This document shows positions 10,003-62,719 of a DNA stretch of 64,000 nt, piece after piece. The stretch comes from Acidimicrobiales bacterium. GTDB lineage: Bacteria; Actinomycetota; Acidimicrobiia; Acidimicrobiales; QHCF01. Each line of letters starts with the position of its first letter. The stretch's first letter is position 1. A program made the translations under genes and the position numbers. The notes under the pieces are model-generated. The model saw only the letters and a list, made by a program, of their open reading frames with translations. It was not told where the DNA came from and did not search any database. The stretch covers positions 2,766 to 66,765 of the forward strand of contig JAVKSQ010000008.1 in the NCBI GenBank assembly GCA_039583615.1. The letters run 5' to 3'.

Positions 10003-11081
10003 GGCCGCGGGCCGCCGGCGTAGATGGTGCCGTCGGGGGACTCGACCACCGCGATCGGGGTGAGGCCGACCGTCGCCGGCCCAGCCAGCAACGCCCCGGT
10101 GCGACCGTCGAAGCGGGAGCCGTGGCAGGGGCACACGAACTCGGAGGCACCCGGGACGTAGCCCACCCGGCAGCGAGCGTGCGGGCAGATGGCGTCGAAG
10201 GCGACCAGCCGGCCGGCGCTCGGCTGGACGACGTAGGCAGGGTCGCCGGTGGCCGGGTCGGTGAAGCCCAGGGCCTGCCCGGGCGGCACCGCCCCGACGC
10301 GCCCGATGGGCCGGCCGGCGCCCGGAGCCGTCGCCTGGCCTCCCGGTCCAGTCGTCGCCGGCCCTCCGGCCCCGGCCATGGGGGGGCCGGTGGAGCTGCT
10401 CGGGGCCCGGGTCCTCGCCCCCGGTGGCCGGCCGGACCTGCCGGCGATCCACTCTGCCAGCCCGCCGGCCAGCAGCGCCACTGCCCCGATCAAGGCGATG
10501 GGCCGGGCCCGCTGGAGGACCTCCCGCCTCCCGATCAGGGCGGGGTCGCGGCCATGGTCGGCATGGCGACCATGGCCGGGCCGGGCGAGGCGTCGCCATG
10601 GCACGTCGAGCGACCAGGCACCGCCGGTGCCAACCAGGGCAAGGGGTGTCCAGGCGAACAGGAACACGATGTCCGATCCCAGGTAGTAGGGGCTGTCGCG
10701 GAAGCTGACGGTGAGGAACAGGGCGGCGGAGATGGCCATTCCCCCGACGGCGGCCAACCGGGGTGCCAGCCCGAGAAGGGTGGCGGCGCCCACCGCCAGC
10801 TGCCCCAGGGCCAGCACCACGCCGATCAGCACCGGGAAGTGGGCGACCACGTCCAGCAGCGGTCGGATGGGGCTGCCGGCGGCGGCGGCGTGCAGCTGGG
10901 CCTGGATCGAGCCTGGGTAGGAGGGCCTGAAGAACCGGGGATCGGCCAGCTTCTGCCCGCCGGCGAAGGCGAAGGTGACGCCCAGGAACAGCCGGAGGGG
11001 CACCAGCCCCCAGCCCGTCGTGCTGGCGGGCGACGGGCCCGGCGGGGGCGCCGGCTCCCTGGGGGCCCGGCGGTCGCTCAA
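9999..11081 (-). CDS. DoxX/DoxD-like membrane domain fused to a C-terminal Rieske [2Fe-2S] domain
   Basis: The N-terminal half has about 4 TM helices (LRLFLGVTFAFAGGQKL...). It is followed by GRREVLQRARPIALIGAVALLAGG, a Pro/Gly linker, and the Rieske ligands CPHARC...CPCHGS. TTG 11081 overlaps the upstream stop (TTGA); ORF 9999..11234 allows earlier starts. Confidence 0.75.
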   Translation of the reverse strand: MSDRRAPREPAPPPGPSPASTTGWGLVPLRLFLGVTFAFAGGQKLADPRFFRPSYPGSIQAQLHAAAAGSPIRPLLDVVAHFPVLIGVVLALGQLAVGAATLLGLAPRLAAVGGMAISAALFLTVSFRDSPYYLGSDIVFLFAWTPLALVGTGGAWSLDVPWRRLARPGHGRHADHGRDPALIGRREVLQRARPIALIGAVALLAGGLAEWIAGRSGRPPGARTRAPSSSTGPPMAGAGGPATTGPGGQATAPGAGRPIGRVGAVPPGQALGFTDPATGDPAYVVQPSAGRLVAFDAICPHARCRVGYVPGASEFVCPCHGSRFDGRTGALLAGPATVGLTPIAVVESPDGTIYAGGPRP

Positions 11082-42489: not shown

Positions 42490-43416
42490 GTGAGCGGGGC
42501 CGGGGCCGTCCCGGCGGCGGTGGCCGAGGAGGTGGGCGGGGCGCCTGGCGCGGGGGGCACCGCCCGGGCTCGGGCCCGGCGCCGGCTCGACTGGCGACAG
42601 CTGGCCTTCTACCTGGGCGTCCTGATCGTCCTGGCGGTGGCCCTCTTCCCCTTCTACTGGATCCTGCGGACGTCGCTGGAGTCCTCAGCCGAGGTGGCAC
42701 AGGGCGTGGGTGGCCCCAACGGCCTGCTGCCGCCCCACCTCAGCTTGTCCGCCTATGTCGACGACTTCACCCAGCAGCACTTCCTGGGGCCGTTGGTCAA
42801 CAGCGCCATCGTCTCGCTGGCCGCCACGGTGGTGTCTGTCATCTTCGGCTCGCTGGCCGGCTACGCCCTGGCCCGCCTGCCGGTACGAGGATCGGGCCCG
42901 ATCCTCGGCTTCATCCTGCTGGCCGGATTCTTCCCCGTCCTGGCCATGGTCGGGCCCTTGTTCCTCCTCTACCGCAAGCTGGGCTTCCTCGACTCGATCT
43001 ACCCGCTGATCCTCACCTACCTGGTGTACACCCTTCCGCTGGCCACCTGGCTGCTCAAGAACTTCTTCGCCCAGATCCCCAAGGAGCTGGAGGAGGCGGC
43101 GCTGGTGGACGGGGCCACCCGGCTCCAGGCGCTGTGGAGGATCGTCGTCCCCGTGGCGGTGCCCGGGGTGTTCACGGCGGCCATCCTGTCCTTCATCCTG
43201 GCCTGGAACGACTTCGCCTTCGCCGTCTCATTCCTGCAGACACCGAGCAAGTTCACCGCCCCGGTGTCCATCGTCAACTTCGGCCAGAGCGCGTTCCAGG
43301 TCTTCTACAACCGCATCGACGCGGCGGTGGTCATCATCACCATCCCCATTGCCCTGCTGGTCCTGGCGGCCCAGCGCCGGATCGTCTCGGGCCTGACGGC
43401 CGGGGCCCTCAAGTAA
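42490..43416 (+). CDS. Sugar ABC transporter permease (MalG/UgpE-like)
   Basis: EAA loop ...LEEAALVDGATRLQALWRIVVPVAVPG..., 6 TM helices, GTG start. Confidence 0.85.
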   Translation: MSGAGAVPAAVAEEVGGAPGAGGTARARARRRLDWRQLAFYLGVLIVLAVALFPFYWILRTSLESSAEVAQGVGGPNGLLPPHLSLSAYVDDFTQQHFLGPLVNSAIVSLAATVVSVIFGSLAGYALARLPVRGSGPILGFILLAGFFPVLAMVGPLFLLYRKLGFLDSIYPLILTYLVYTLPLATWLLKNFFAQIPKELEEAALVDGATRLQALWRIVVPVAVPGVFTAAILSFILAWNDFAFAVSFLQTPSKFTAPVSIVNFGQSAFQVFYNRIDAAVVIITIPIALLVLAAQRRIVSGLTAGALK

Positions 43417-49694: not shown

Positions 49695-51224
49695 ATGCCT
49701 CAGAACCGACATGGAGGCGACCGGAGCAACGCCAGCCCGGTCAGTGACGAGGCGCTGGTCGAGCAGACCAGAGCCGGCTGCCTCGATACCTTCGAGAAGC
49801 TGTACCAGCGGCATGCGCCGGTCGCCTGGCGTACCGCTCTGGCCATCACCGGCAACGTCCACGATGCCGCCGACGCGGTGGCCGAGGCCTTTGCGCGGGT
49901 GCTGCGAGCGGTCCCGGCCGGTCAGCTGGACGATGCCGCCCGCTTTCGCCCTTACCTGCTGACCGCCACCCGCAACTCGGCCCTCGACATCCTGCGGCGG
50001 GGCGCACGCGTCAGGCCCACTGACGACATGGTCACCCTGGACCGGCCGATGACCACCAACGGGCCCTCGGAGCACCTCGAGGCCAGTGCCGACGCGTCGA
50101 TGGTGGCCGCCGCTTTCGCCGCCCTGCCCGAGCGTTGGCGTACCGTGCTGTGGCTGACCGAGGTCGAGGGGGTGGCGCCCGGCGATGCCGCCAGCGTCCT
50201 TCACACCTCGCCCAACGCCGTCGCCCAACTGGGCGTCCGGGCGCGGGCCGGGCTGCGCCAGCAATTCCTGCAGGCCCACCTGCGCTCCGATGCGGCTCAG
50301 GGCTGCCGGTCCACGGTCAAGGTCCTGGGGCCCTACGCGACCGGGAGCCTGTCGGCCAAGGCGATGGCCAGGGTGGACGGCCATCTGGCCGACTGCCCGG
50401 CCTGCGTGGCCCGGTTGGACGAGCTCAACGAGCTGTGCTCCAGCCTGCGTCGGGTGGCGGTGCCGGGCGTCCCCGCCACCCTCGGGGCCTGGGTGGCGGC
50501 CCGTTCCAGGGCGGCCGGGCACTTGGCCGTCGGCGCCTCTCGCCACGGTGCCCTGGCGACGCTGCCGGCCATCACGGCCAAGCCGCTGGTCGGGGCGGCG
50601 CTGGGGATCATCGGGGTGGGCATCATCGGGGCATCGGTGATGGGCCAGTCCTTTGCCCCCCTGCCCCAACCGGCCCATCCGTCGGTCGACCTGGGTGGCG
50701 CGCCACCCAGCCATGTGCGCCACATAGGGCGGCTGGGCTCGCCCACCGCCCTTCCTCCCAGCGCCTCCACCGGGGCAGCCGACTCACCGACCGGCCCGGC
50801 GCCGGCGCCAGCCACCACGCTGGCATCGGTTGCGCCCGGCCCAGGGACGACGCCGGGCTCGGCCGGCTCGGTGGCCATCGGGACGCCGGCCGCCGTGGTC
50901 CGCTCGGCCTCTCCTGGGGCCGCAGCAACCGGGCAGGCCGGCACCTCGCCGGGCCCGCCGGCGTCGGTGGCCACTGATCCGAGTCAGCCTCCCGCCGCAC
51001 CGGCCGCATCGTCCACCCCGACGCCACTGGTGCAGGTGTCGGCCAACCTGGCGGTGTCCGCCCTCCCGGTCAGTGCCTCGGTGGGCCTGGGCCCGGGTTC
51101 GTGCACCGGCGCGCAGGTGGGCTCCATCCAGGTCGGATGCAGCCAACCGGCGTCCGCCCAGCCCTCGGTCAAGCTGAGTGGCTCGCTGGTCAGCCTGCCG
51201 TCAACCCTCGGCCTGGTGCACTAG
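49695..51224 (+). CDS. ECF sigma factor fused to a zf-HC2 anti-sigma-like domain, a TM helix and a Pro/Ala/Ser-rich extracytoplasmic tail
   Basis: Sigma region 2 (FEKLYQRHAPVAWRTALAITGNVHDAADAVAEAF) and region 4 (LPERWRTVLWLTEVEGVAPGDAASVLHTSPNAVAQLGVRAR). Then C-x24-HLADCPAC (HxxxCxxC), the TM helix LVGAALGIIGVGIIGASVM, and about 170 aa of low-complexity PAST-rich tail. Confidence 0.8.
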   Translation: MPQNRHGGDRSNASPVSDEALVEQTRAGCLDTFEKLYQRHAPVAWRTALAITGNVHDAADAVAEAFARVLRAVPAGQLDDAARFRPYLLTATRNSALDILRRGARVRPTDDMVTLDRPMTTNGPSEHLEASADASMVAAAFAALPERWRTVLWLTEVEGVAPGDAASVLHTSPNAVAQLGVRARAGLRQQFLQAHLRSDAAQGCRSTVKVLGPYATGSLSAKAMARVDGHLADCPACVARLDELNELCSSLRRVAVPGVPATLGAWVAARSRAAGHLAVGASRHGALATLPAITAKPLVGAALGIIGVGIIGASVMGQSFAPLPQPAHPSVDLGGAPPSHVRHIGRLGSPTALPPSASTGAADSPTGPAPAPATTLASVAPGPGTTPGSAGSVAIGTPAAVVRSASPGAAATGQAGTSPGPPASVATDPSQPPAAPAASSTPTPLVQVSANLAVSALPVSASVGLGPGSCTGAQVGSIQVGCSQPASAQPSVKLSGSLVSLPSTLGLVH

Positions 51225-55647: not shown

Positions 55648-56393
55648 GGAAGCCCATGGTGCTCGGGGAGGGTGCCCCCATCGTCATCCTCCACGGCTTC
55701 GGGCTGGCCCCCCGAACCTACCGCCGCACCGCCGAGCTGCTGGCGGCCCGGTCGCTGGTGGTGGTGCCGCCCCTGTTCGGACTGGGCCGGCACTGGAGCT
55801 ACGAGCGGGCGGTCGACTCCCTGGTGGCCATGGTGGACGATCTCGGCCTCGAGCGGGTGACCCTGATCGGGCACTCCTTCGGCGGCGGCCTGGAGCTGGG
55901 CCTGGCCGCCCGGCATCCCGACCGGGTGGTCGAGATGGTCTTCGTCGACACCCTGGGGCTGTCCCGGGAATGGACGCTGGCCGAGGAGGCCGTGCACCCC
56001 GTCCACCTCCTGCGGCTGGCCACGCCCCGGGCCACCATCGACTTCACCTGGACCGTCGTCACCCATCCGGCGGAGATGGCCCGGGCCGCCTGGTGGGGCT
56101 TCACCAGCGACCGGGGCGCGGAGGTGGCCACCGTAGCGGCCGCCGGCCTGCCCTGCCATGTGCTGTGGGCGGGCCGGGACACATTGCTGTCCCGCCGGGA
56201 TGGCCAGGACTTCGCCGAGGAGCTGGGGGCCTCCTTCACGGTGGTGCGGAGCTTTCGAGGGCCCATCGACCACGATTGGATGTACCGCCACCCTGTCCTG
56301 TTCGTCAGCCAGCTGGACCGGGTTGGCCTGGCCGCCCTGAGCAGAGCCCCGCAGCCCACGGCAGGGGGGCGCAGCCAACCGGGCAGTGGCTAG
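55644..56393 (+). CDS. Alpha/beta hydrolase
   Basis: ATG 55644 overlaps the valS stop (ATGA). HG motif ILHGFG, nucleophile elbow GHSFGG, and a C-terminal ...DHDWM... His. Confidence 0.75.
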   Translation: MRKPMVLGEGAPIVILHGFGLAPRTYRRTAELLAARSLVVVPPLFGLGRHWSYERAVDSLVAMVDDLGLERVTLIGHSFGGGLELGLAARHPDRVVEMVFVDTLGLSREWTLAEEAVHPVHLLRLATPRATIDFTWTVVTHPAEMARAAWWGFTSDRGAEVATVAAAGLPCHVLWAGRDTLLSRRDGQDFAEELGASFTVVRSFRGPIDHDWMYRHPVLFVSQLDRVGLAALSRAPQPTAGGRSQPGSG

Positions 56394-56442
56394 GCGGCCG
56401 ACGCGGCACTGCCCCGGACGGTCCCAGTCCGGCTGGGGTACC

Positions 56443-56510
56443 GGCGGGCCGGGTCGACCGGCTGGCGGGCCGGGTCGACCGGCTGGCGGGCCGGGTCGAC
56501 CGGCTGGCAG
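56443..56510 (+). repeat. 21-bp tandem repeat x3 (GGCGGGCCGGGTCGACCGGCT), each unit containing the palindrome GGTCGACC, upstream of amt
   Basis: Read directly. The palindromes lie at 56452-59, 56473-80 and 56494-501. No ATG/GTG/TTG occurs in the amt frame between the hydrolase stop and GTG 56570, so the array is untranslated. Confidence 0.9.
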
Positions 56511-56569
56511 GCCTGGCGGCCCGGCCCCTAGCCTCGTCGCCCGATGGGCGCGCCGGGGCCAGCCAACCA

Positions 56570-57817
56570 GTGAGCGCCGGCGACACCGCCTGGGTCCTGG
56601 TGTGCGCCGCCCTGGTGCTGTTCATGACCCCTGGCCTGGCCCTGTTCTACGGCGGGATGGTGCGCACCAAGAACGTGCTGGCCATCATCATGCAGTGCTT
56701 CTCCACCATGGGGGTGGTGAGCGTCCTGTGGGTGGTGATCGGCTTCAGCCTGGCCTTCGGCCATGACGCATGGGGCGGCCTGATCGGAGGCGTGGGCCTG
56801 GCCGGGCTGCGCCACCTGAGCCAGGGAGTCCCCGGCTACCACCTGACCATCCCGCCCCTTGCCTTCATGGCCTTCCAGATGATGTTCGCCATCATCACCC
56901 CGGCGCTGATCAGCGGAGCCGTCGCCGATCGGCTGAGGTTCTCGTCGTTCGCGGTGTTCATCGGCCTCTGGCTGCTGGTGGTCTACGCACCTATTGCCCA
57001 CTGGGCGTTCAGCCCCTCGGGCTGGCTGGTCCACCGGGGGGCGCTGGACTTCGCCGGCGGGACGGTGGTGGAGATCAACTCCGGGTTCTCCTCTCTGGCC
57101 GCGGTGATGGTGGTCGGACGCCGCCGGGGGTGGCCGACCGACGCCATGACTCCCCACTCCCTGCCGTTCACTCTCCTCGGTGCCGGGATCCTGTGGTTCG
57201 GTTGGTTCGGCTTCAACGCCGGGTCGGCCCTGGCGGCCAACGGCGTGGCCGGCCAAGCTCTGGTCAACACCCAGCTGGCGGCGGCCACCGGCCTGCTGGG
57301 ATGGATCGCCGCCGAGCGGATGAAGGGCGGACGGGCGACGACCCTGGGGGCCGCCTCGGGAGCGGTCACCGGCATGGTGGCCATCACCCCCTGCGCCGGG
57401 TACGTCGGCGCCCTGCCGGCGCTGCTGATCGGCTTTGCCGCCGGCGTGGTGTGCCTGTGGGCGGTAGCGGCCAAGTTCCGCCTCCGCTACGACGACTCGC
57501 TCGACGTGGTCGCCGTGCACGGAGTGGGCGGGATCGTGGGCACGCTGCTGCTGGGGGTGTTCGCGGCCAGGGGGATCGACCTCGCCGGCTCGAACGGGCT
57601 GCTATCGGGAGGGGGCCTGCACCTGCTGGGCAACCAGGCCCTGGCAGTAGGCGCAACCATTGGCTACGCCTTCGCGGCCACCTGGGTGGTAGCCAAGGCG
57701 GTGGATGCCGTGCTGGGCCTGCGAGTCACTCTGGACGAGGAGATCGAGGGTCTGGACACCACCCAGCATGCCGAGACTGCGTACTCGGGGGGCGCCCTGG
57801 GCCGACTGGGCCAGTGA
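56570..57817 (+). CDS. amt: Ammonium transporter (Amt family)
   Basis: GTG 56570 gives VSAGDTAWVLVCAALVLFMTPGLALFYGGMVR..., with ...DFAGGTVVEINSG... and ...VHGVGGIVGTLLLG... (twin-His region); 11 TM helices. Confidence 0.9.
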   Translation: MSAGDTAWVLVCAALVLFMTPGLALFYGGMVRTKNVLAIIMQCFSTMGVVSVLWVVIGFSLAFGHDAWGGLIGGVGLAGLRHLSQGVPGYHLTIPPLAFMAFQMMFAIITPALISGAVADRLRFSSFAVFIGLWLLVVYAPIAHWAFSPSGWLVHRGALDFAGGTVVEINSGFSSLAAVMVVGRRRGWPTDAMTPHSLPFTLLGAGILWFGWFGFNAGSALAANGVAGQALVNTQLAAATGLLGWIAAERMKGGRATTLGAASGAVTGMVAITPCAGYVGALPALLIGFAAGVVCLWAVAAKFRLRYDDSLDVVAVHGVGGIVGTLLLGVFAARGIDLAGSNGLLSGGGLHLLGNQALAVGATIGYAFAATWVVAKAVDAVLGLRVTLDEEIEGLDTTQHAETAYSGGALGRLGQ

Positions 57818-58237: not shown

Positions 58238-58465
58238 TCAACTAACCGTGGTTCCAGCGTCAGCCTGGCGAGCGCACGAGGCGCAGCAAAACATTCGGCC
58301 CGCCGCTTCGGCGCCGTGGCCCAGCACCCGGCATCCGCAGTGCTCACAGATCGGTGCTAGGCGGTGAGCGGCGCATTCGAAGCTGTCGAAGACGTGACGC
58401 TCGCCGGCCATTATGACCTCGAAGGTCTTGTCGTAGTCGTTGCCGCACACCTCGCATCTGGACAT
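58238..58465 (-). CDS. Small Cys-rich (9 Cys, 4 His in 75 aa) putative metal-binding protein
   Basis: ATG 58465 with RBS AAGGAAGG gives MSRCEVCGNDYDKTFEVIMAGERHVFDSFECAAHRLAPICEHCGCRVLGHGAEAAGRMFCCASCARQ.... CxxC, CxHCGC and CCxxC clusters. Confidence 0.7.
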   Translation of the reverse strand: MSRCEVCGNDYDKTFEVIMAGERHVFDSFECAAHRLAPICEHCGCRVLGHGAEAAGRMFCCASCARQADAGTTVS

Positions 58466-58779: not shown

Positions 58780-59409
58780 TCAGGCGTCGGTGAGCGGCCC
58801 CGGGTAGGCCGCTTCGGCCTGGGCGCTCAGTCTACCCGCCCGGTGGCGGACGACGACGATGGCGCCGACAATGACGGCCACCGCGCTGATCCCGAGACCG
58901 ACGTCGACCGGTCCCGAGACCTTGTTGATGGCGTTGCCGGCGGCGTAGGACGAGAAGCTGTAGATGGCCGCCCACACGATGCCGCCGGTGGCGTTGTAGG
59001 GCAGGAAGCGCCGCCAGTGCATGCGGTTGGTACCGGCCAGGAAAGCGGCATAGGTCCTCAGGACGGACACGAACCGGCCGAGGAAGACAACCTTCGCTCC
59101 GTGACGGTCGAAGATGTAGCGACCGACCTTGATCCTGGTCTCGTCAACTCGCACGTAGTGCCCGTAGCGGCGCAGGAGCCGGTAACCGCCCTTGTCCCCG
59201 ATCCAGAAACCGATGTTGTCCCCGATGATGGCGGCGGCGGCGGCGACGGCAAAGACCAGCCAGATGGACAGCTTGTGGGTACTGCCGGCATAGGTGCCGG
59301 CGGCGATCAGGATGGTCTCCCCGGGCAAGGGGATGCCGAGGCTCTCGGCCGCCACCAAGGCGAACACCGCGGCGTAGCCGTACGTGGTTAGCAGGTGGGT
59401 GACGTTCAT
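58780..59409 (-). CDS. dedA: DedA family membrane protein
   Basis: ATG 59409 gives ...AVFALVAAESLGIPLPGETILIAAG...GDNIGFWIGDKGGY...FLGRFVSVLRTYAAFLAG... (SNARE-associated/DedA signature). Confidence 0.85.
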   Translation of the reverse strand: MNVTHLLTTYGYAAVFALVAAESLGIPLPGETILIAAGTYAGSTHKLSIWLVFAVAAAAAIIGDNIGFWIGDKGGYRLLRRYGHYVRVDETRIKVGRYIFDRHGAKVVFLGRFVSVLRTYAAFLAGTNRMHWRRFLPYNATGGIVWAAIYSFSSYAAGNAINKVSGPVDVGLGISAVAVIVGAIVVVRHRAGRLSAQAEAAYPGPLTDA

Positions 59410-59526
59410 AGGGGCGTCCCTGGCTGGCACCCGACGCCGGGCGGAAGCGCCGGAAGACCTGGGCGAACTCGCAGCCGATCGCCCCGCCACGATCGCCGCA
59501 CCGGGCGGGCAGCGAGCCTCTCCAGC

Positions 59527-60213
59527 CTACATCGCCTCCTTCACGCCTCGGCGAATCAGCCAGACATTGGTGGGATAGGCGGTGGCGAAGCCGATCATCA
59601 TGCCGATCTGCATGAGGAACCAGTAGACCGGCGAATCCGGGCGGAGGTGAGGGTTGGGGAACAAGACGAAGACCACCAGGGCCATCCACCCGAACAGCCC
59701 TATCTCGAAGCTGGTGAGCGACAAGATATCGGCCTTGGCCGCCTCCCACATTCCGTCCTTCAGATTGAGGCCTCGCATGGGTGCGATGGCGAAGTACTGG
59801 AACACGATGCCGATCGACACCGCGGCAAGGTAGTCCCCGATGTACTCCGGGACCAGCGCCAAGCCTGCCACGGTGGCGCCGATGCCGAACACGGCGAACT
59901 CCGCTATGACGTCTCCCAGCGTGCAGCCCGCCCCGCAGTGGCTGACACCAACGGCCACCACCGTCCAGAACGGGCGCCTCGGCTGCTCGCCGTGCTCCGC
60001 CTCCCAGCGGCTGGCCTTGGCTCGGCCCCACGCCCCGTAGGCGACAGTGGCGACCGGGCCGAAGTACAAGGCGGTGATCGGCCACACCGCTTCCATGACC
60101 CGCATGGGCTGGCGGTAGCCGTGAACGTAGATGTCATAGACGATCTCCGCCGCGCTGGCGAAGGCGAGGGCGAGGGCGGCCCAGGACAGATCAGTCAGCC
60201 AGGTCGGCGGCAT
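59527..60213 (-). CDS. DUF4396-like integral membrane protein with a CGAGC motif
   Basis: ATG 60213 with RBS GGAAAGGA. About 6 TM helices, VGVSHCGAGCTLGD, and a C-terminal ...GFATAYPTNVWLIRRGVKEAM, as I recall for DUF4396. Confidence 0.65.
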   Translation of the reverse strand: MPPTWLTDLSWAALALAFASAAEIVYDIYVHGYRQPMRVMEAVWPITALYFGPVATVAYGAWGRAKASRWEAEHGEQPRRPFWTVVAVGVSHCGAGCTLGDVIAEFAVFGIGATVAGLALVPEYIGDYLAAVSIGIVFQYFAIAPMRGLNLKDGMWEAAKADILSLTSFEIGLFGWMALVVFVLFPNPHLRPDSPVYWFLMQIGMMIGFATAYPTNVWLIRRGVKEAM

Positions 60214-60311
60214 GTCCGTGATCCTTTCCTCGTCGTCGGCCTCGCCGTCGAGGTCGGCCTCCAGGCCCCGGCGCAGCCTACGATGCTCCCCGTTGCTCAG
60301 CGCAGAGCGGG

Positions 60312-60365
60312 AACCCTGTCGATGGCGTGCACATTCCGCGGAATCAACCGGGTCGCAAGGGGGTT
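60312..60365. promoter_or_regulatory. Back-to-back SigR/SigH-type ECF promoters: AAC-N18-ATTCCGCGGAAT-N18-GTT
   Basis: Read directly. Plus strand: GGAAT 60340-44, 18 nt, GTT 60363-65, then 8 nt to GTG 60374. Minus strand: GGAAT (complement of 60333-37), 18 nt, GTT (complement of 60312-14). The central 12 bp (60333-44) are a perfect palindrome. Confidence 0.6.
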
Positions 60366-60373
60366 TCACACAC

Positions 60374-60934
60374 GTGCCCGACCCGGCTGAGCAGCAGCTC
60401 CGAGAGGACGCGTTCGCCCGCTACGTGCTGCCGGAGCTGGAGGTGCTTGCCGGGGTGGCGTTCTCGCTGACCGGCAACGGCGCTGACGCCGAAGACCTCG
60501 TCCAAGAGACGCTTATCTGCGCCTACCGGGCGATCGAGCGCTTCGACGGCGCCCACCCCCGGGCGTGGCTGTTCACCATCATGCGCAACGCCGAGGCAAA
60601 GCGGCACCGCCGCCGCCGCCCGCAGCTGCTGCGCGACCCCGACCAGGCCCAGCGCCTCGAGAGGGCCGACCCCCGCCGCGCCGTCGACTCGCCCGAGGAG
60701 GTGGTGGTCGGCGCCGAGTTCGACGCCGTGGTGACCCAGTGCCTCGGCGCCCTCCCCGAACGGCACCGCCAGGTGATCGGGCTCGTCGACATCGACGGGC
60801 TCTCCTACGCCGAGGCGGCGGAGATCCTCGGGGTGCCGGTCGGCACCGTCATGAGCCGCCTGCACCGCGCCCGGACCCGCATCCGCCAGCGGCTCAGCGC
60901 GGCAGGCGTCGCCCCGAGACGGAGCATGCGATGA
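60374..60934 (+). CDS. ECF sigma factor (SigR/SigH-like by promoter and partner)
   Basis: Region 2 DAEDLVQETLICAYRAIERFDGAHPRAWLFTIMRNA and region 4 LPERHRQVIGLVDIDGLSYAEAAEILGVPVGTVMSRLHRAR. GTG 60374 lies in the frame of ORF 60212..60934. Confidence 0.85.
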   Translation: MPDPAEQQLREDAFARYVLPELEVLAGVAFSLTGNGADAEDLVQETLICAYRAIERFDGAHPRAWLFTIMRNAEAKRHRRRRPQLLRDPDQAQRLERADPRRAVDSPEEVVVGAEFDAVVTQCLGALPERHRQVIGLVDIDGLSYAEAAEILGVPVGTVMSRLHRARTRIRQRLSAAGVAPRRSMR

Positions 60935-61218
60935 ACCCGTTGAGCCTGGCGGCCAGCCGCCTCCACTGCTTGCACAACATGCGCCTCCTGCAGACCTACC
61001 TGGACGGTGCCCTCGACGAGATGCCGGCCCGACGTGTCGCCGAGCATCTCGAGGAGTGCCGTCGCTGCGGTCTCGAGGCGGAGATCTACCGGGAGATCAA
61101 GGCGTCGATTCACGAGCGGGACTGCACCGTCGACCCTGGCGCCGTCGAACGGCTCCGCCGATTCGGTGAGGCCCTCGCTCGCGACGGCGAGCCGGCCCCG
61201 GGCGGAGCGGGTGCGTGA
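60931..61218 (+). CDS. Cytoplasmic zinc-binding anti-sigma factor (ZAS, RsrA/RshA-like)
   Basis: ATG 60931 overlaps the sigma stop (ATGA). 95 aa with no TM helix. C13...H39-x3-C43-x2-C46 (AEHLEECRRC) has the same spacing as RsrA C11/H37/C41/C44. Confidence 0.8.
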   Translation: MNPLSLAASRLHCLHNMRLLQTYLDGALDEMPARRVAEHLEECRRCGLEAEIYREIKASIHERDCTVDPGAVERLRRFGEALARDGEPAPGGAGA

Positions 61219-61249: not shown

Positions 61250-62719
61250 GTGGTGACGCAGTCGCCGGCAACCGCCGAGGGCGGCCGAGGGGCGCTCGGC
61301 GCCGGCCGCGGGGCGGAACCCGCCTGGGACCTGGCGGTCGTCGGCGGCGGAGCGGGAGGAATCGCAGCCGCTCGTGCCGGCGTGCGCCGGGGCCGTCGCA
61401 CCGTACTGGTCCAGGACGGCCGCGTCGGCGGCGAGTGCACCTTCACCGGATGCGTGCCGTCCAAGACGCTGATCGAGGCGGCGGGCCAGGGCTTGTCCTT
61501 CGCCCAGGCGGCCAGCAGGATGCAGGCGGTAATCGAGACGATCGCCGCAACCGAGAGCTCCGACGCCCTGTCGAAGGAAGGCATCGAGGTCGTGACCGGC
61601 CGAGCCCGCTTCGTCGGTCCGACCGCCCTGGAGGTCGACGGGCGCATCCTGGCAGCCAGACGGGTCGTCATCGCCACCGGCTCCAGCCCCATGGTCCCGC
61701 CGGTTCCGGGACTTCCCGACGCCGAGTTCCTCACCAACGAGTCGGTCTTCGGTCTCACCGAGCTGCCCCAGTCGATCGCCGTGCTGGGTGGCGGGGCGAT
61801 CGGCTGCGAGCTCGCCCAGGTCTTCCGGCGCTTCGGCGCCCAGGTGCACATCATCGAGGGCGAGCAGCGGCTGCTCGTGAAGGAGGAGGCCGAGACGGGC
61901 GCGTTAGTGGCGAAGGTCTTGTCCGCAGAGGGCATCGACCTGCACCTGGGTGCATTGGCCAGCCGGGTCGAGCCCTCGCCGCCGGGGGAAGCGGTCAGGA
62001 TCGCGCTGTCCGATGGCTCCGAGGTGCGGGCGGCCGCCCTGCTGGTGGCGGTCGGACGGACACCGACGACGACTGGTCTGGATCCCGAGGCGGGAGGGGT
62101 CGAGCTCGACGACCGGGGGTTCGTGCGCACGGACCGGTTCCTGCACACCAGCGCCCCGGGCGTCTACGCGGTGGGTGACGTGACCGGCCGGCTGCTGTTC
62201 ACCCACGCCGCCGACGAGATGGGCCAGCTGGCGGTGCGAAATGCCTTCCGGCACCTCGGGCGCCGTCGGTTCGACCCGTCAGCGGTCCCGTGGGTGACCT
62301 TCTGCGACCCCGAGGTTGCTCGTGTCGGCCTCACCGAGCACCAGGGGGCGGCCCACCACGGGAGGGTCGCGGTGCTGCCGATGTCGGCGGTCGACCGGGC
62401 GGTGACCGCCGGGCGGACCGAGGGGTTCGTGAAGCTGATCGCCGGGCCCCGCCCGCTGCTCCGCTCCGCCGGCGGCGGCCAGCTGCTCGGGGCGACCATC
62501 GTCGCTCCCCGGGCAGGCGAGATGATCCACGAGGTCGTACTGGCCATGCGCACGGGCATGTTCACCGGCCGGCTCGCCCAGGCGGTGCACGCCTACCCCA
62601 CCTGGTCGACCGCCGTGCGCCAGGCGGCCGCGCAGTTCTTCGTGGAGGTCGACGGTCGTCGGGCCCGCCCGGCCCGGCCGGCCGCCTCGGCCGCCACGGG
62701 CGAGCCTGGCCCGTGCTGA
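61250..62719 (+). CDS. FAD-dependent pyridine nucleotide-disulfide oxidoreductase (class I; lipoamide dehydrogenase / MerA-core-like; substrate unknown)
   Basis: FAD fold DLAVVGGGAGGIAAA, redox-active disulfide GGECTFTGCVPSK, NAD fold IAVLGGGAIGCELA, and the dimerisation-domain motif VHAYPTWS. There is no N-terminal HMA domain and no C-terminal Cys pair; the protein ends ...GEPGPC. Start GTG 61250 or 61253. Confidence 0.85.
   Translation: MVTQSPATAEGGRGALGAGRGAEPAWDLAVVGGGAGGIAAARAGVRRGRRTVLVQDGRVGGECTFTGCVPSKTLIEAAGQGLSFAQAASRMQAVIETIAATESSDALSKEGIEVVTGRARFVGPTALEVDGRILAARRVVIATGSSPMVPPVPGLPDAEFLTNESVFGLTELPQSIAVLGGGAIGCELAQVFRRFGAQVHIIEGEQRLLVKEEAETGALVAKVLSAEGIDLHLGALASRVEPSPPGEAVRIALSDGSEVRAAALLVAVGRTPTTTGLDPEAGGVELDDRGFVRTDRFLHTSAPGVYAVGDVTGRLLFTHAADEMGQLAVRNAFRHLGRRRFDPSAVPWVTFCDPEVARVGLTEHQGAAHHGRVAVLPMSAVDRAVTAGRTEGFVKLIAGPRPLLRSAGGGQLLGATIVAPRAGEMIHEVVLAMRTGMFTGRLAQAVHAYPTWSTAVRQAAAQFFVEVDGRRARPARPAASAATGEPGPC

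Follow-up and report, generated by a model that had tools for sequence, protein, structure and literature searches.

A compact pair of back-to-back ECF-type promoters in an Acidimicrobiales contig, with a leftward promoter probably captured by a DUF4396 gene

We analyzed a 64,000-nucleotide (64-kb) stretch of DNA, hereafter the window, from an Acidimicrobiales bacterium (GenBank assembly GCA_039583615.1, contig JAVKSQ010000008.1), in which a gene for an extracytoplasmic function (ECF) sigma factor and a gene for a DUF4396 membrane protein diverge from a shared intergenic region. Comparison with related loci makes it probable that this region is a compact bidirectional ECF promoter unit driven by the local sigma factor, and that its leftward promoter has been captured by DUF4396. 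Read directly from the sequence, 60312-60365 has the form AAC-N18-ATTCCGCGGAAT-N18-GTT, that is, GGAAT-N18-GTT on each strand. The intergenic region spans 60214-60373 (160 bp), from the DUF4396 ATG at 60213-60211 on the minus strand to the sigma GTG at 60374, with the GTT ending 8 nt upstream of the latter. An earlier note on this DNA had described both the architecture of the divergent region and the 8-nt distance, and direct reading bore out both together with their coordinates. The parts of the pair are:

60312..60316, minus strand: -10 GTT, extended GGGTT (plus-strand AACCC), of the divergent promoter, with AAC itself at 60312-60314
60315-60332: 18-nt spacer
60333..60337, minus strand: -35 GGAAT (plus-strand ATTCC) of the divergent promoter
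60333..60344, strandless: ATTCCGCGGAAT, a 12-bp palindrome ATTCC-GC-GGAAT holding the two -35 pentamers 2 bp apart
60340..60344, plus strand: -35 GGAAT of the sigma-operon promoter, an invariant column in a nine-locus alignment
60345-60362: second 18-nt spacer
60361..60365, plus strand: -10 GTT (60363-60365), extended GGGTT, of the sigma-operon promoter, followed by 8 nt (60366-60373) and then GTG

The strict pattern GGAAT-N18-GTT occurs three times on the two strands of the window, compared with 0.14 ± 0.38 occurrences expected from 100 dinucleotide shuffles of the window, none of which reached three. The back-to-back pair accounts for two of these matches. The third, at 10717-10742 on the minus strand, sits in what is apparently coding sequence, inside open reading frames that are long and overlap one another, in agreement with the earlier note's statement that no other match is intergenic. 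Widening the spacer to 16-20 nt added a single match, with N20, at 43207-43234. We also built a weight matrix from 26 relatives' sites, leaving out those of the window. Scored this way, the minus site reached 26.3 bits, the best in the window, and the plus site 23.3 bits, while the next-best score among about 128,000 positions on both strands was 8.7 bits. Across the strict pattern, the relaxed spacer and the matrix, the only further candidates in the window were 10717-10742 and 43207-43234. The match at 10717-10742 sits in a hydrophobic open reading frame, scores 8.7 bits with the matrix and is probably due to chance. Both half-sites agree exactly with GGAAT-N18-19-GTT, the published SigH/SigR consensus (PMC10012870), as the earlier note had recognized. 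By comparison of sequences, then, both half-sites behave as real, conserved ECF-type promoters.

To place the pair among its relatives, we fetched 80 loci from genomes, 80 from metagenomes, and 14 through exact protein look-up. Loci whose sigma factor was at least 44% identical were counted as family loci, 41 of which had enough upstream sequence; the metagenome scan contributed only four family loci. GGAAN-N17-19-GTT stood just upstream of the sigma gene in 27 of the 41, and 12 had a strict back-to-back partner within 30 bp. Among SigH-like or other loci, an upstream match was present in 53/120 and a back-to-back partner in 0/120. Both promoters are kept, with pentamers 1-3 bp apart, in ten distinct close relatives, which include L081, L082, L084, L085, L086, L087, L089, and L091 as well as L176, a locus reached through the divergent protein ZAS2 (see below). 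In the nine with a measured sigma identity, a set that excludes L176, this identity was 73-84%. The pentamers are separated by 1 bp in L081 (G), 3 bp in L082 (GGT), and 2 bp in L084 (CT), L085 (GG), L086 (CT), L087 (TT), L089 (GT), L091 (AT), and L176 (CT). Gaps are wider in more distant relatives, at 5 bp in L001, 6 in L005, 10 in L008, 17 in L002, and 43 in L093.

In the nine-locus alignment the -35/-10 spacers are variable, and the invariant columns are largely GGGAACCC, ACATTCC, GGAATG, GGGGTT, the start codons, and parts of the ZAS2 coding stretch. The family promoter consensus is GGAATG-N15-GGGTTyC. As exceptions, the -10 reads GGATT in the plus promoters of L089 and L091 and in the minus promoters of L091, L001, and L176. 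Of the ten close relatives, three carry ATT instead of GTT in the plus promoter. Judged from these alignments, the promoter pair is conserved in position, spacing, and orientation.

The relatives also clarified where transcription is likely to begin. All 26 of the relatives' sites that we examined have an ATG or GTG 7-10 nt past the -10 triplet, the distance usually being exactly 8, and this codon is the start of either the sigma gene or the divergent gene. The plus site of the window follows this rule, reading GTT, TCACACAC, GTG, whereas the minus site breaks it by having GCG at the expected start position. Close sigma homologues are 186 aa long with full-length coverage. Hence, the sigma mRNA is very probably leaderless, with a predicted plus start at about 60372-60374 and a predicted minus start at about 60303-60305. 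The earlier note had proposed a near-leaderless sigma transcript starting near 60371; the shared geometry supports that proposal and moves the start slightly downstream. In the relatives, a start codon about 8 nt past each -10 triplet implies that both divergent transcripts would be leaderless. Only about 70 bp separate their two start codons, a space taken up by the two promoters and nothing else.

Downstream of the plus promoter lie three genes:

60374..60934, plus strand: ECF sigma factor of 186 aa, a SigH paralogue, with Pfam Sigma70_r2 and Sigma70_r4_2
60931..61218, plus strand: ZAS1, a zinc-type anti-sigma factor of 95 aa, whose start overlaps the sigma stop (zf-HC2, 35.4 bits)
61250..62719, plus strand: a MerA-like/lipoamide-dehydrogenase-like flavoprotein disulfide oxidoreductase, with Pfam Pyr_redox_2 and Pyr_redox_dim

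The sigma factor matched Sigma70_r2 (E = 3.5e-18), Sigma70_r4_2 (E = 8e-18), and Sigma70_ECF (E = 2.7e-7). It scored 101 bits against TIGR02937, for which the cut-off is 42.9, and has only the sigma-2 and sigma-4 regions, which places it among the ECF (group 4) factors. The earlier note had treated it as a SigR/SigH-type factor, an assignment that did not survive comparison with the actinobacterial SigH model. Against TIGR02947 (SigH_actino) the window sigma scored 107 bits, well below the cut-off of 251.55, and its family relatives L001, L008, and L084 scored 102-118. By contrast, sigma factors about 40% identical to it from Corynebacterium (L063), Nocardia (L074), Micromonospora (L068), and Thermomonospora (L022) scored 264-363 bits. 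By these model scores, L022, L063, L068, and L074 are the real SigH orthologues and the window sigma is a SigH paralogue belonging to another ECF family. Its closest solved structure is nevertheless that of M. tuberculosis SigH (5zx2, E = 6e-27).

The sigma-4 recognition helix is essentially the same in the two families, reading GTVMSRLHRAR in the window and GTVMSRLHRGR in SigH. All 34 of the family loci that were scored had the Met-containing helix, as did 120 of the 123 SigH-like loci. In C. glutamicum SigH, a Met at residue 170 has been modelled to read -31 and -30 (PMC10012870), and the equivalent Met is residue 167 in the Corynebacterium orthologue L063. Because the helix is common to this sigma family and SigH, the same -35 specificity is expected of both; the shared helix explains the motif, and it also permits cross-talk with SigH. 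Where the helix differs, so does the promoter. Five of five loci with an SRLSRAR helix (L009, L012, L014, L015, and L018) have a -35 of GGAAC or GGAAG and a 19-nt spacer, while all SRLHRAR loci with a recognizable motif have GGAAT and an 18-nt spacer. The -10 flanks differ as well: those of the sigma family are GGGTTyC and leaderless, and those of the true SigH genes' own promoters are G[T/C]GTTg, mostly 90-185 nt upstream and hence leadered.

About half of ECF sigma factors autoregulate (PMC7776599), and divergent neighbours are routinely co-regulated by them (PMC7776599, PMC11832516). Given the matched change of helix and -35, the distinct -10 flanks, and these general habits of ECF factors, we consider it fairly probable that both promoters depend on the local sigma factor. 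Recognition by SigH is a live alternative or addition.

ZAS1 carries C13, H39, C43, and C46 with the spacing of C11/H37/C41/C44 in RsrA (PMC3177212), and has an EE pair ahead of the first motif Cys. The pair accounts for two of the four residues to which redox sensitivity has been attributed (PMC3177212). ZAS1 scored 31.5 bits against the RsrA model TIGR03988, below the cut-off of 62.5. The MerA-like gene follows the sigma gene and ZAS1 in many relatives, and is probably the third gene of the sigma operon. From ZAS1 and the disulfide-reductase-type flavoprotein of the operon, thiol or soft-metal stress would be the inducing signal, although this is only a guess. As a separate observation, tblastn detected no ZAS1 in L009, L012, L014, L015, and L018, in which the MerA-like gene lies about 290-370 bp after the sigma gene.

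On the other side of the intergenic region, the relatives encode a protein of 80-86 aa that we call ZAS2, with the pattern EHRxLRRxVExYLDGEAD...RRHLxxCWxCSEDAEWLxLxK...RRPPxLA. ZAS2 of relatives scored 23-29 bits against Pfam zf-HC2 (threshold 22.2), is 38% identical to ZAS1 over 66 residues, and has His in place of Cys as its putative first zinc ligand. The family comprises 21 clusters, none with an annotation more specific than 'zf-HC2 domain-containing protein' or 'anti-sigma factor RsiW'. A divergent ZAS2 gene lies next to the sigma gene in L081-L091, L001, L002, L093, and L176, and a class I methyltransferase gene is often next after it. A look-up starting from ZAS2 instead recovered the same divergent arrangement of sigma, ZAS1, and oxidoreductase genes. 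On this comparative evidence, ZAS2 is a small uncharacterised zf-HC2 family paralogous to ZAS1, with a putative anti-sigma role, and the conserved cargo of the leftward promoter is ZAS2 rather than DUF4396.

The window departs from its relatives at precisely this point. Its leftward side is laid out as follows:

60237..60303, minus strand: ZAS2 remnant, the first ~22 codons, now part of a predicted 5' leader, in frame as ALSNGEHRRLRRGLEADLDGEAD
60214..60236, minus strand: junction of 23 bases unrelated to relatives, in which GGAAAGGA resembles a Shine-Dalgarno sequence and lies 8 nt ahead of the DUF4396 ATG
59527..60213, minus strand: DUF4396 membrane-protein gene, 228 aa (Pfam PF14342, E = 2.6e-40)
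59441..59490: inverted 50-nt stretch, 96% complementary to a segment from inside the MerA-like gene (61788-61837)

The remnant matches the N-terminus of ZAS2, with 15 of 21 residues identical to L086, and has GCG where relatives have a leaderless ATG or GTG. It keeps only residues N-terminal to the zinc motif, and an intact HX3CX2C domain is not found in the window. DNA identity to relatives is 0.66 across 60237-60303 and falls to 0.37 across 60180-60236, a stretch over which the relatives are 0.63 identical among themselves. The remnant is as similar to relatives as the intact genes are to one another. Since it is no more diverged than intact orthologues, either the event is recent or the stump is under constraint.

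Most DUF4396 homologues have 228-238 aa, and their alignments cover 89-100% of the query (mostly 100%), which identifies the ATG at 60213 as the real start. We considered whether the in-frame stretch upstream belongs to the DUF4396 protein and rejected this, given that the homologues are mostly 228-238 aa and share the same Met start. Reading the sequence between the predicted minus start and 60213 revealed no ATG, GTG, or TTG in any frame. A scan of this leader found neither a terminator-like nor a sigma-70-like site, and Rfam gave no match. Its predicted fold is not stable, with less structure than shuffled sequences (z = +1.6). DUF4396 was beside the sigma gene in none of 171 related sigma loci from genomes and metagenomes, and hence is not a conserved regulon member. 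Its closest homologues adjoin MerR or ZnuA genes and have no GGAAT-N18-GTT upstream. Our literature search gave nothing specific about the function of DUF4396; only one paper mentioned it, as lying at the edge of a metal-resistance island (PMC7760498). The earlier note had aimed the minus promoter at DUF4396 with a leader of about 90 nt. The site is real by the measures above and DUF4396 does lie downstream; the conserved cargo is ZAS2, however, and the leader is the 5' remnant of a decapitated ZAS2 gene.

Traces of rearrangement extend beyond the junction. The inverted copy at 59441-59490 corresponds to MerA-like residues ~181-195 (GGGAIGCELAQVFRRF), lies between the DUF4396 stop and the start of a DedA gene, and is probably a rearrangement scar. 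Its two arms differ at two positions and so do not form an exact repeated k-mer. In L086, a DedA gene 68% identical to that of the window lies near the sigma gene in the opposite orientation. The inverted MerA-like copy and the flipped DedA gene together point to local rearrangement. The simplest reading of these sequences is promoter capture, in which the ZAS2 gene was destroyed and the promoter it left behind came to stand in front of DUF4396. In order, the left neighbours in the window are DUF4396, a DedA/VTT protein at 58780-59409, and a Cys-rich open reading frame of 75 aa at 58238-58465 on the minus strand (MSRCEVCGNDYDKTFEV...CEHCGC...CCASCARQ). Neither Pfam nor NCBIfam gave a match for the last of these, which may encode a small metal-binding protein.

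These observations can be assembled into a model. The rightward promoter would start transcription at or within a few nucleotides of the GTG at 60374, giving a leaderless mRNA that encodes the sigma factor, ZAS1, and probably the MerA-like reductase. Such an operon would combine positive autoregulation with co-transcribed negative feedback. In relatives, the leftward promoter would drive leaderless ZAS2, often with the methyltransferase next. A rearrangement in this genome would have removed ZAS2 past codon ~22 and joined the stump to DUF4396. The intact leftward promoter would then make a leader of about 90 nt followed by DUF4396, translated from DUF4396's own ribosome binding site and ATG. 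By this route DUF4396, a metal- or thiol-associated membrane protein, would have been drawn into the small local regulon of the sigma factor. Within the model, we infer the transcription starts, the dependence on the local sigma factor, the read-through into DUF4396, and the inducing signal.

Several points weigh against this model. Promoter activity is read wholly from sequence comparison. The strict match is absent in 14 of the 41 family loci, including Streptomyces L003, L006, and L016, in which the autoregulatory promoter may have changed or been lost. As a side observation, L003 and L006 have GGGGGGTCC near the sigma start in place of GGAAT-N18-GTT. The covariation of helix and -35 is confined to one subclade and therefore counts as one evolutionary event. 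The source is a metagenome-type assembly, in which the junctions at ~60237 and 59441-59490 could be chimeric. Now that ZAS2 is gone, the leftward promoter may be no more than a recent relic, not one selected to drive DUF4396. Finally, a motif equal to the SigH/SigR consensus together with a shared helix means that a global SigH could drive one or both promoters.

Taken to its conclusion, the last of these points would put both promoters in the regulon of the organism's global SigH/SigR orthologue, making the sigma operon and its neighbour SigH targets and leaving the sigma factor without autoregulation. Beyond the common motif and the GTVMSRLHR helix shared with SigH orthologues, it draws support from the overlapping ECF regulons documented in C. 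glutamicum (PMC10012870). We nonetheless consider it unlikely. The fifth -35 base appears to covary with the local helix, such that His-to-Ser accompanies GGAAC/GGAAG, and the GGGTTyC flanks are unlike those of the SigH genes' own promoters. Moreover, the motif travels with the local sigma family across several actinobacterial lineages.

A similarly low probability attaches to the leftward promoter being a functionless relic in this genome, with DUF4396 expressed from elsewhere or outside the control of the sigma factor. The missing start codon (GCG) and truncated ZAS2 would fit a relic, as would the linkage of DUF4396 to the sigma gene nowhere else. A remnant no more diverged than intact orthologues suggests a recent event, which also favours it. 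However, the minus promoter has the top matrix score in the window, at 26.3 bits, and no terminator, sigma-70-like promoter, or structure intervenes. DUF4396 also has the right orientation and its own Shine-Dalgarno sequence and ATG, and no canonical start codon would precede that ATG in the predicted transcript. Local-sigma control of a captured leftward promoter remains the preferred reading.

A separate question is whether the near-touching -35 elements matter in themselves. The earlier note had emphasized the perfect 12-bp palindrome, which comparison shows to be incidental: its centre varies (GC, CT, GG, TT, GT, AT), and the half-sites, 1-3 bp apart in close relatives, are separated by 5-43 bp in distant ones. 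Because the central bases vary among relatives, the perfect palindrome of the window is a by-product of its GC centre. The note had further proposed that -35 elements 2 bp apart would admit one holoenzyme at a time, setting sigma autoregulation in competition with leftward expression. In favour of competition, the -35 of either promoter occupies about -41 to -37 relative to the other, and the gap is held at 1-3 bp in the ten close relatives despite diverged spacers. Yet adjacency is not exclusion, as proteins bound at -41.5 or -42, such as CAP at class II promoters and lambda cI, coexist with sigma region 4. Distant relatives tolerate gaps of 5, 6, 10, 17, and 43 bp, and the 1-3 bp range alone shifts the rotational phase by ~70 degrees through three phases, implying that no exact geometry is required. 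The variable gap thus argues that exclusion is not a family requirement. A tight gap is also expected from two leaderless divergent genes, whose minimal intergenic region can by itself explain the near-touching elements. A literature search on steric limits of back-to-back promoters gave nothing specific. On balance we regard competition as unlikely and unsupported.

Less likely still is a stronger version, in which the ~70-bp unit would be a bidirectional switch, occupied by one polymerase at a time and selected as such in the clade. Every initiation would spend scarce sigma holoenzyme on one side only, either on more sigma plus ZAS1 or on ZAS2, yielding a fixed or noisy ratio of activator to inhibitor, and the inhibitor arm would here have been swapped for DUF4396. 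If it were true, the swap would have converted a homeostatic circuit into one in which autoregulation competes with effector expression. As for ATTCCGCGGAAT being the operator of a dimeric transcription factor rather than two -35 elements, the perfect 12-bp inverted repeat and half-sites extending to CATTCC/GGAATG in relatives are suggestive, but we rejected this very improbable reading because the gap between half-sites ranges from 1-3 up to 43 bp with an unconserved centre, and each half-site stands 18-19 nt from GGGTT/GGATT and then a start codon, which the promoter reading fully explains.

Two adjacent, conserved ECF-type promoters remain the preferred reading of the element, and they can be set against known systems. 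The nearest are SigR-RsrA of Streptomyces coelicolor and SigH-RshA of Mycobacterium and Corynebacterium (ECF12), the thiol-stress ECF system of actinobacteria, characterized by induction with thiol oxidants such as diamide and a global thioredoxin/mycothiol regulon, with which the window shares the GGAAT-N18-19-GTT consensus (PMC10012870) and the GTVMSRLHR helix. As in those systems, a zinc anti-sigma factor that is small and cytoplasmic is encoded downstream, with its Cys and His residues spaced as in RsrA and with predicted co-transcription. Autoregulation (here predicted) and a disulfide-reductase-type enzyme in the local regulon are further common features. The window sigma differs in being only ~40% identical and below the TIGR02947 cut-off, as ZAS1 is below that of the RsrA model. 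Its promoter is leaderless with GGGTTyC, unlike the SigH genes' mostly distant (90-185 nt) G[T/C]GTTg promoters. SigH-like loci also lack a back-to-back partner promoter and a second ZAS gene (0/120). The family matrix found no further promoter sites in the 64-kb window, and the regulon of the window sigma is probably local rather than global.

A second point of comparison is RpoE-ChrR (ECF11) of Stenotrophomonas maltophilia, with its divergent smlt2375-2367 (PMC11832516). There, too, a sigma/anti-sigma operon and a divergent neighbour fall under one ECF sigma factor from one intergenic region. Unlike RpoE-ChrR, the promoters of the window are as close as possible without overlap, with -35 elements 2 bp apart, and both genes are leaderless in relatives. 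The ancestral divergent cargo is also a second anti-sigma paralogue instead of an effector operon. The rpoE-chrR locus of Rhodobacter sphaeroides is likewise an ECF operon with a divergent sigma-dependent operon.

The pair also resembles published predictions of ECF autoregulatory promoters (Todor et al. 2020, PMC7776599; Casas-Pastor et al. 2021, PMC7826278), in which a bipartite motif is over-represented upstream of orthologous ECF genes and their divergent neighbours. Covariation of sigma-4 residues with -35 bases belongs to the logic of those predictions, and in this family the apparent covariation comes from a single subclade. Symmetry-driven bidirectional promoters are a different matter: as reportedly described by Warman et al. 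2021, these have shared or overlapping -10 regions and starts ~18 bp apart. The window is like them in that sequence symmetry gives divergent transcription from one short element, and unlike them in having two complete promoters, starts ~70 bp apart, and symmetry at the -35 elements. SigR/SigH-like autoregulation and a divergent ECF-dependent promoter are both well known, and the replacement of ZAS2 by DUF4396 is the window's own twist. For the two-ZAS architecture or the family, no description was found in the literature searched, a search that did not extend to the ECF Hub.

Two other features of the window deserve mention. A second ECF-type sigma gene, at 49800-50300 on the plus strand, has Sigma70_r2 and Sigma70_r4_2 domains and is 30% identical to the sigma factor studied here; the window scans reported no GGAAT-N18-GTT near it. 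A tandem repeat at 56443-56525 comprises 3.4 copies of a 21-nt unit, GGCGGGCCGGGTCGACCGGCT, with a 98% match. It lies within a long open reading frame (55970-57817), upstream of a stretch resembling a hydrophobic membrane protein.

Our results provide a clean promoter pair, validated by comparison, together with predicted starts. The ECF family to which it belongs is paralogous to SigH and uncharacterised, and most of its members come from uncultured Acidimicrobiales and other Actinomycetota. They suggest that this sigma family normally comes with two paralogous zinc anti-sigma genes arranged on a minimal, doubly leaderless bidirectional promoter. The window would represent a natural case of promoter capture, in which DUF4396 sits behind an ECF promoter in place of the second anti-sigma gene. 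Because it shares both its motif and its sigma-4 helix with SigH, this locus is a useful test case for how paralogous ECF sigma factors with the same core specificity avoid or exploit cross-talk.

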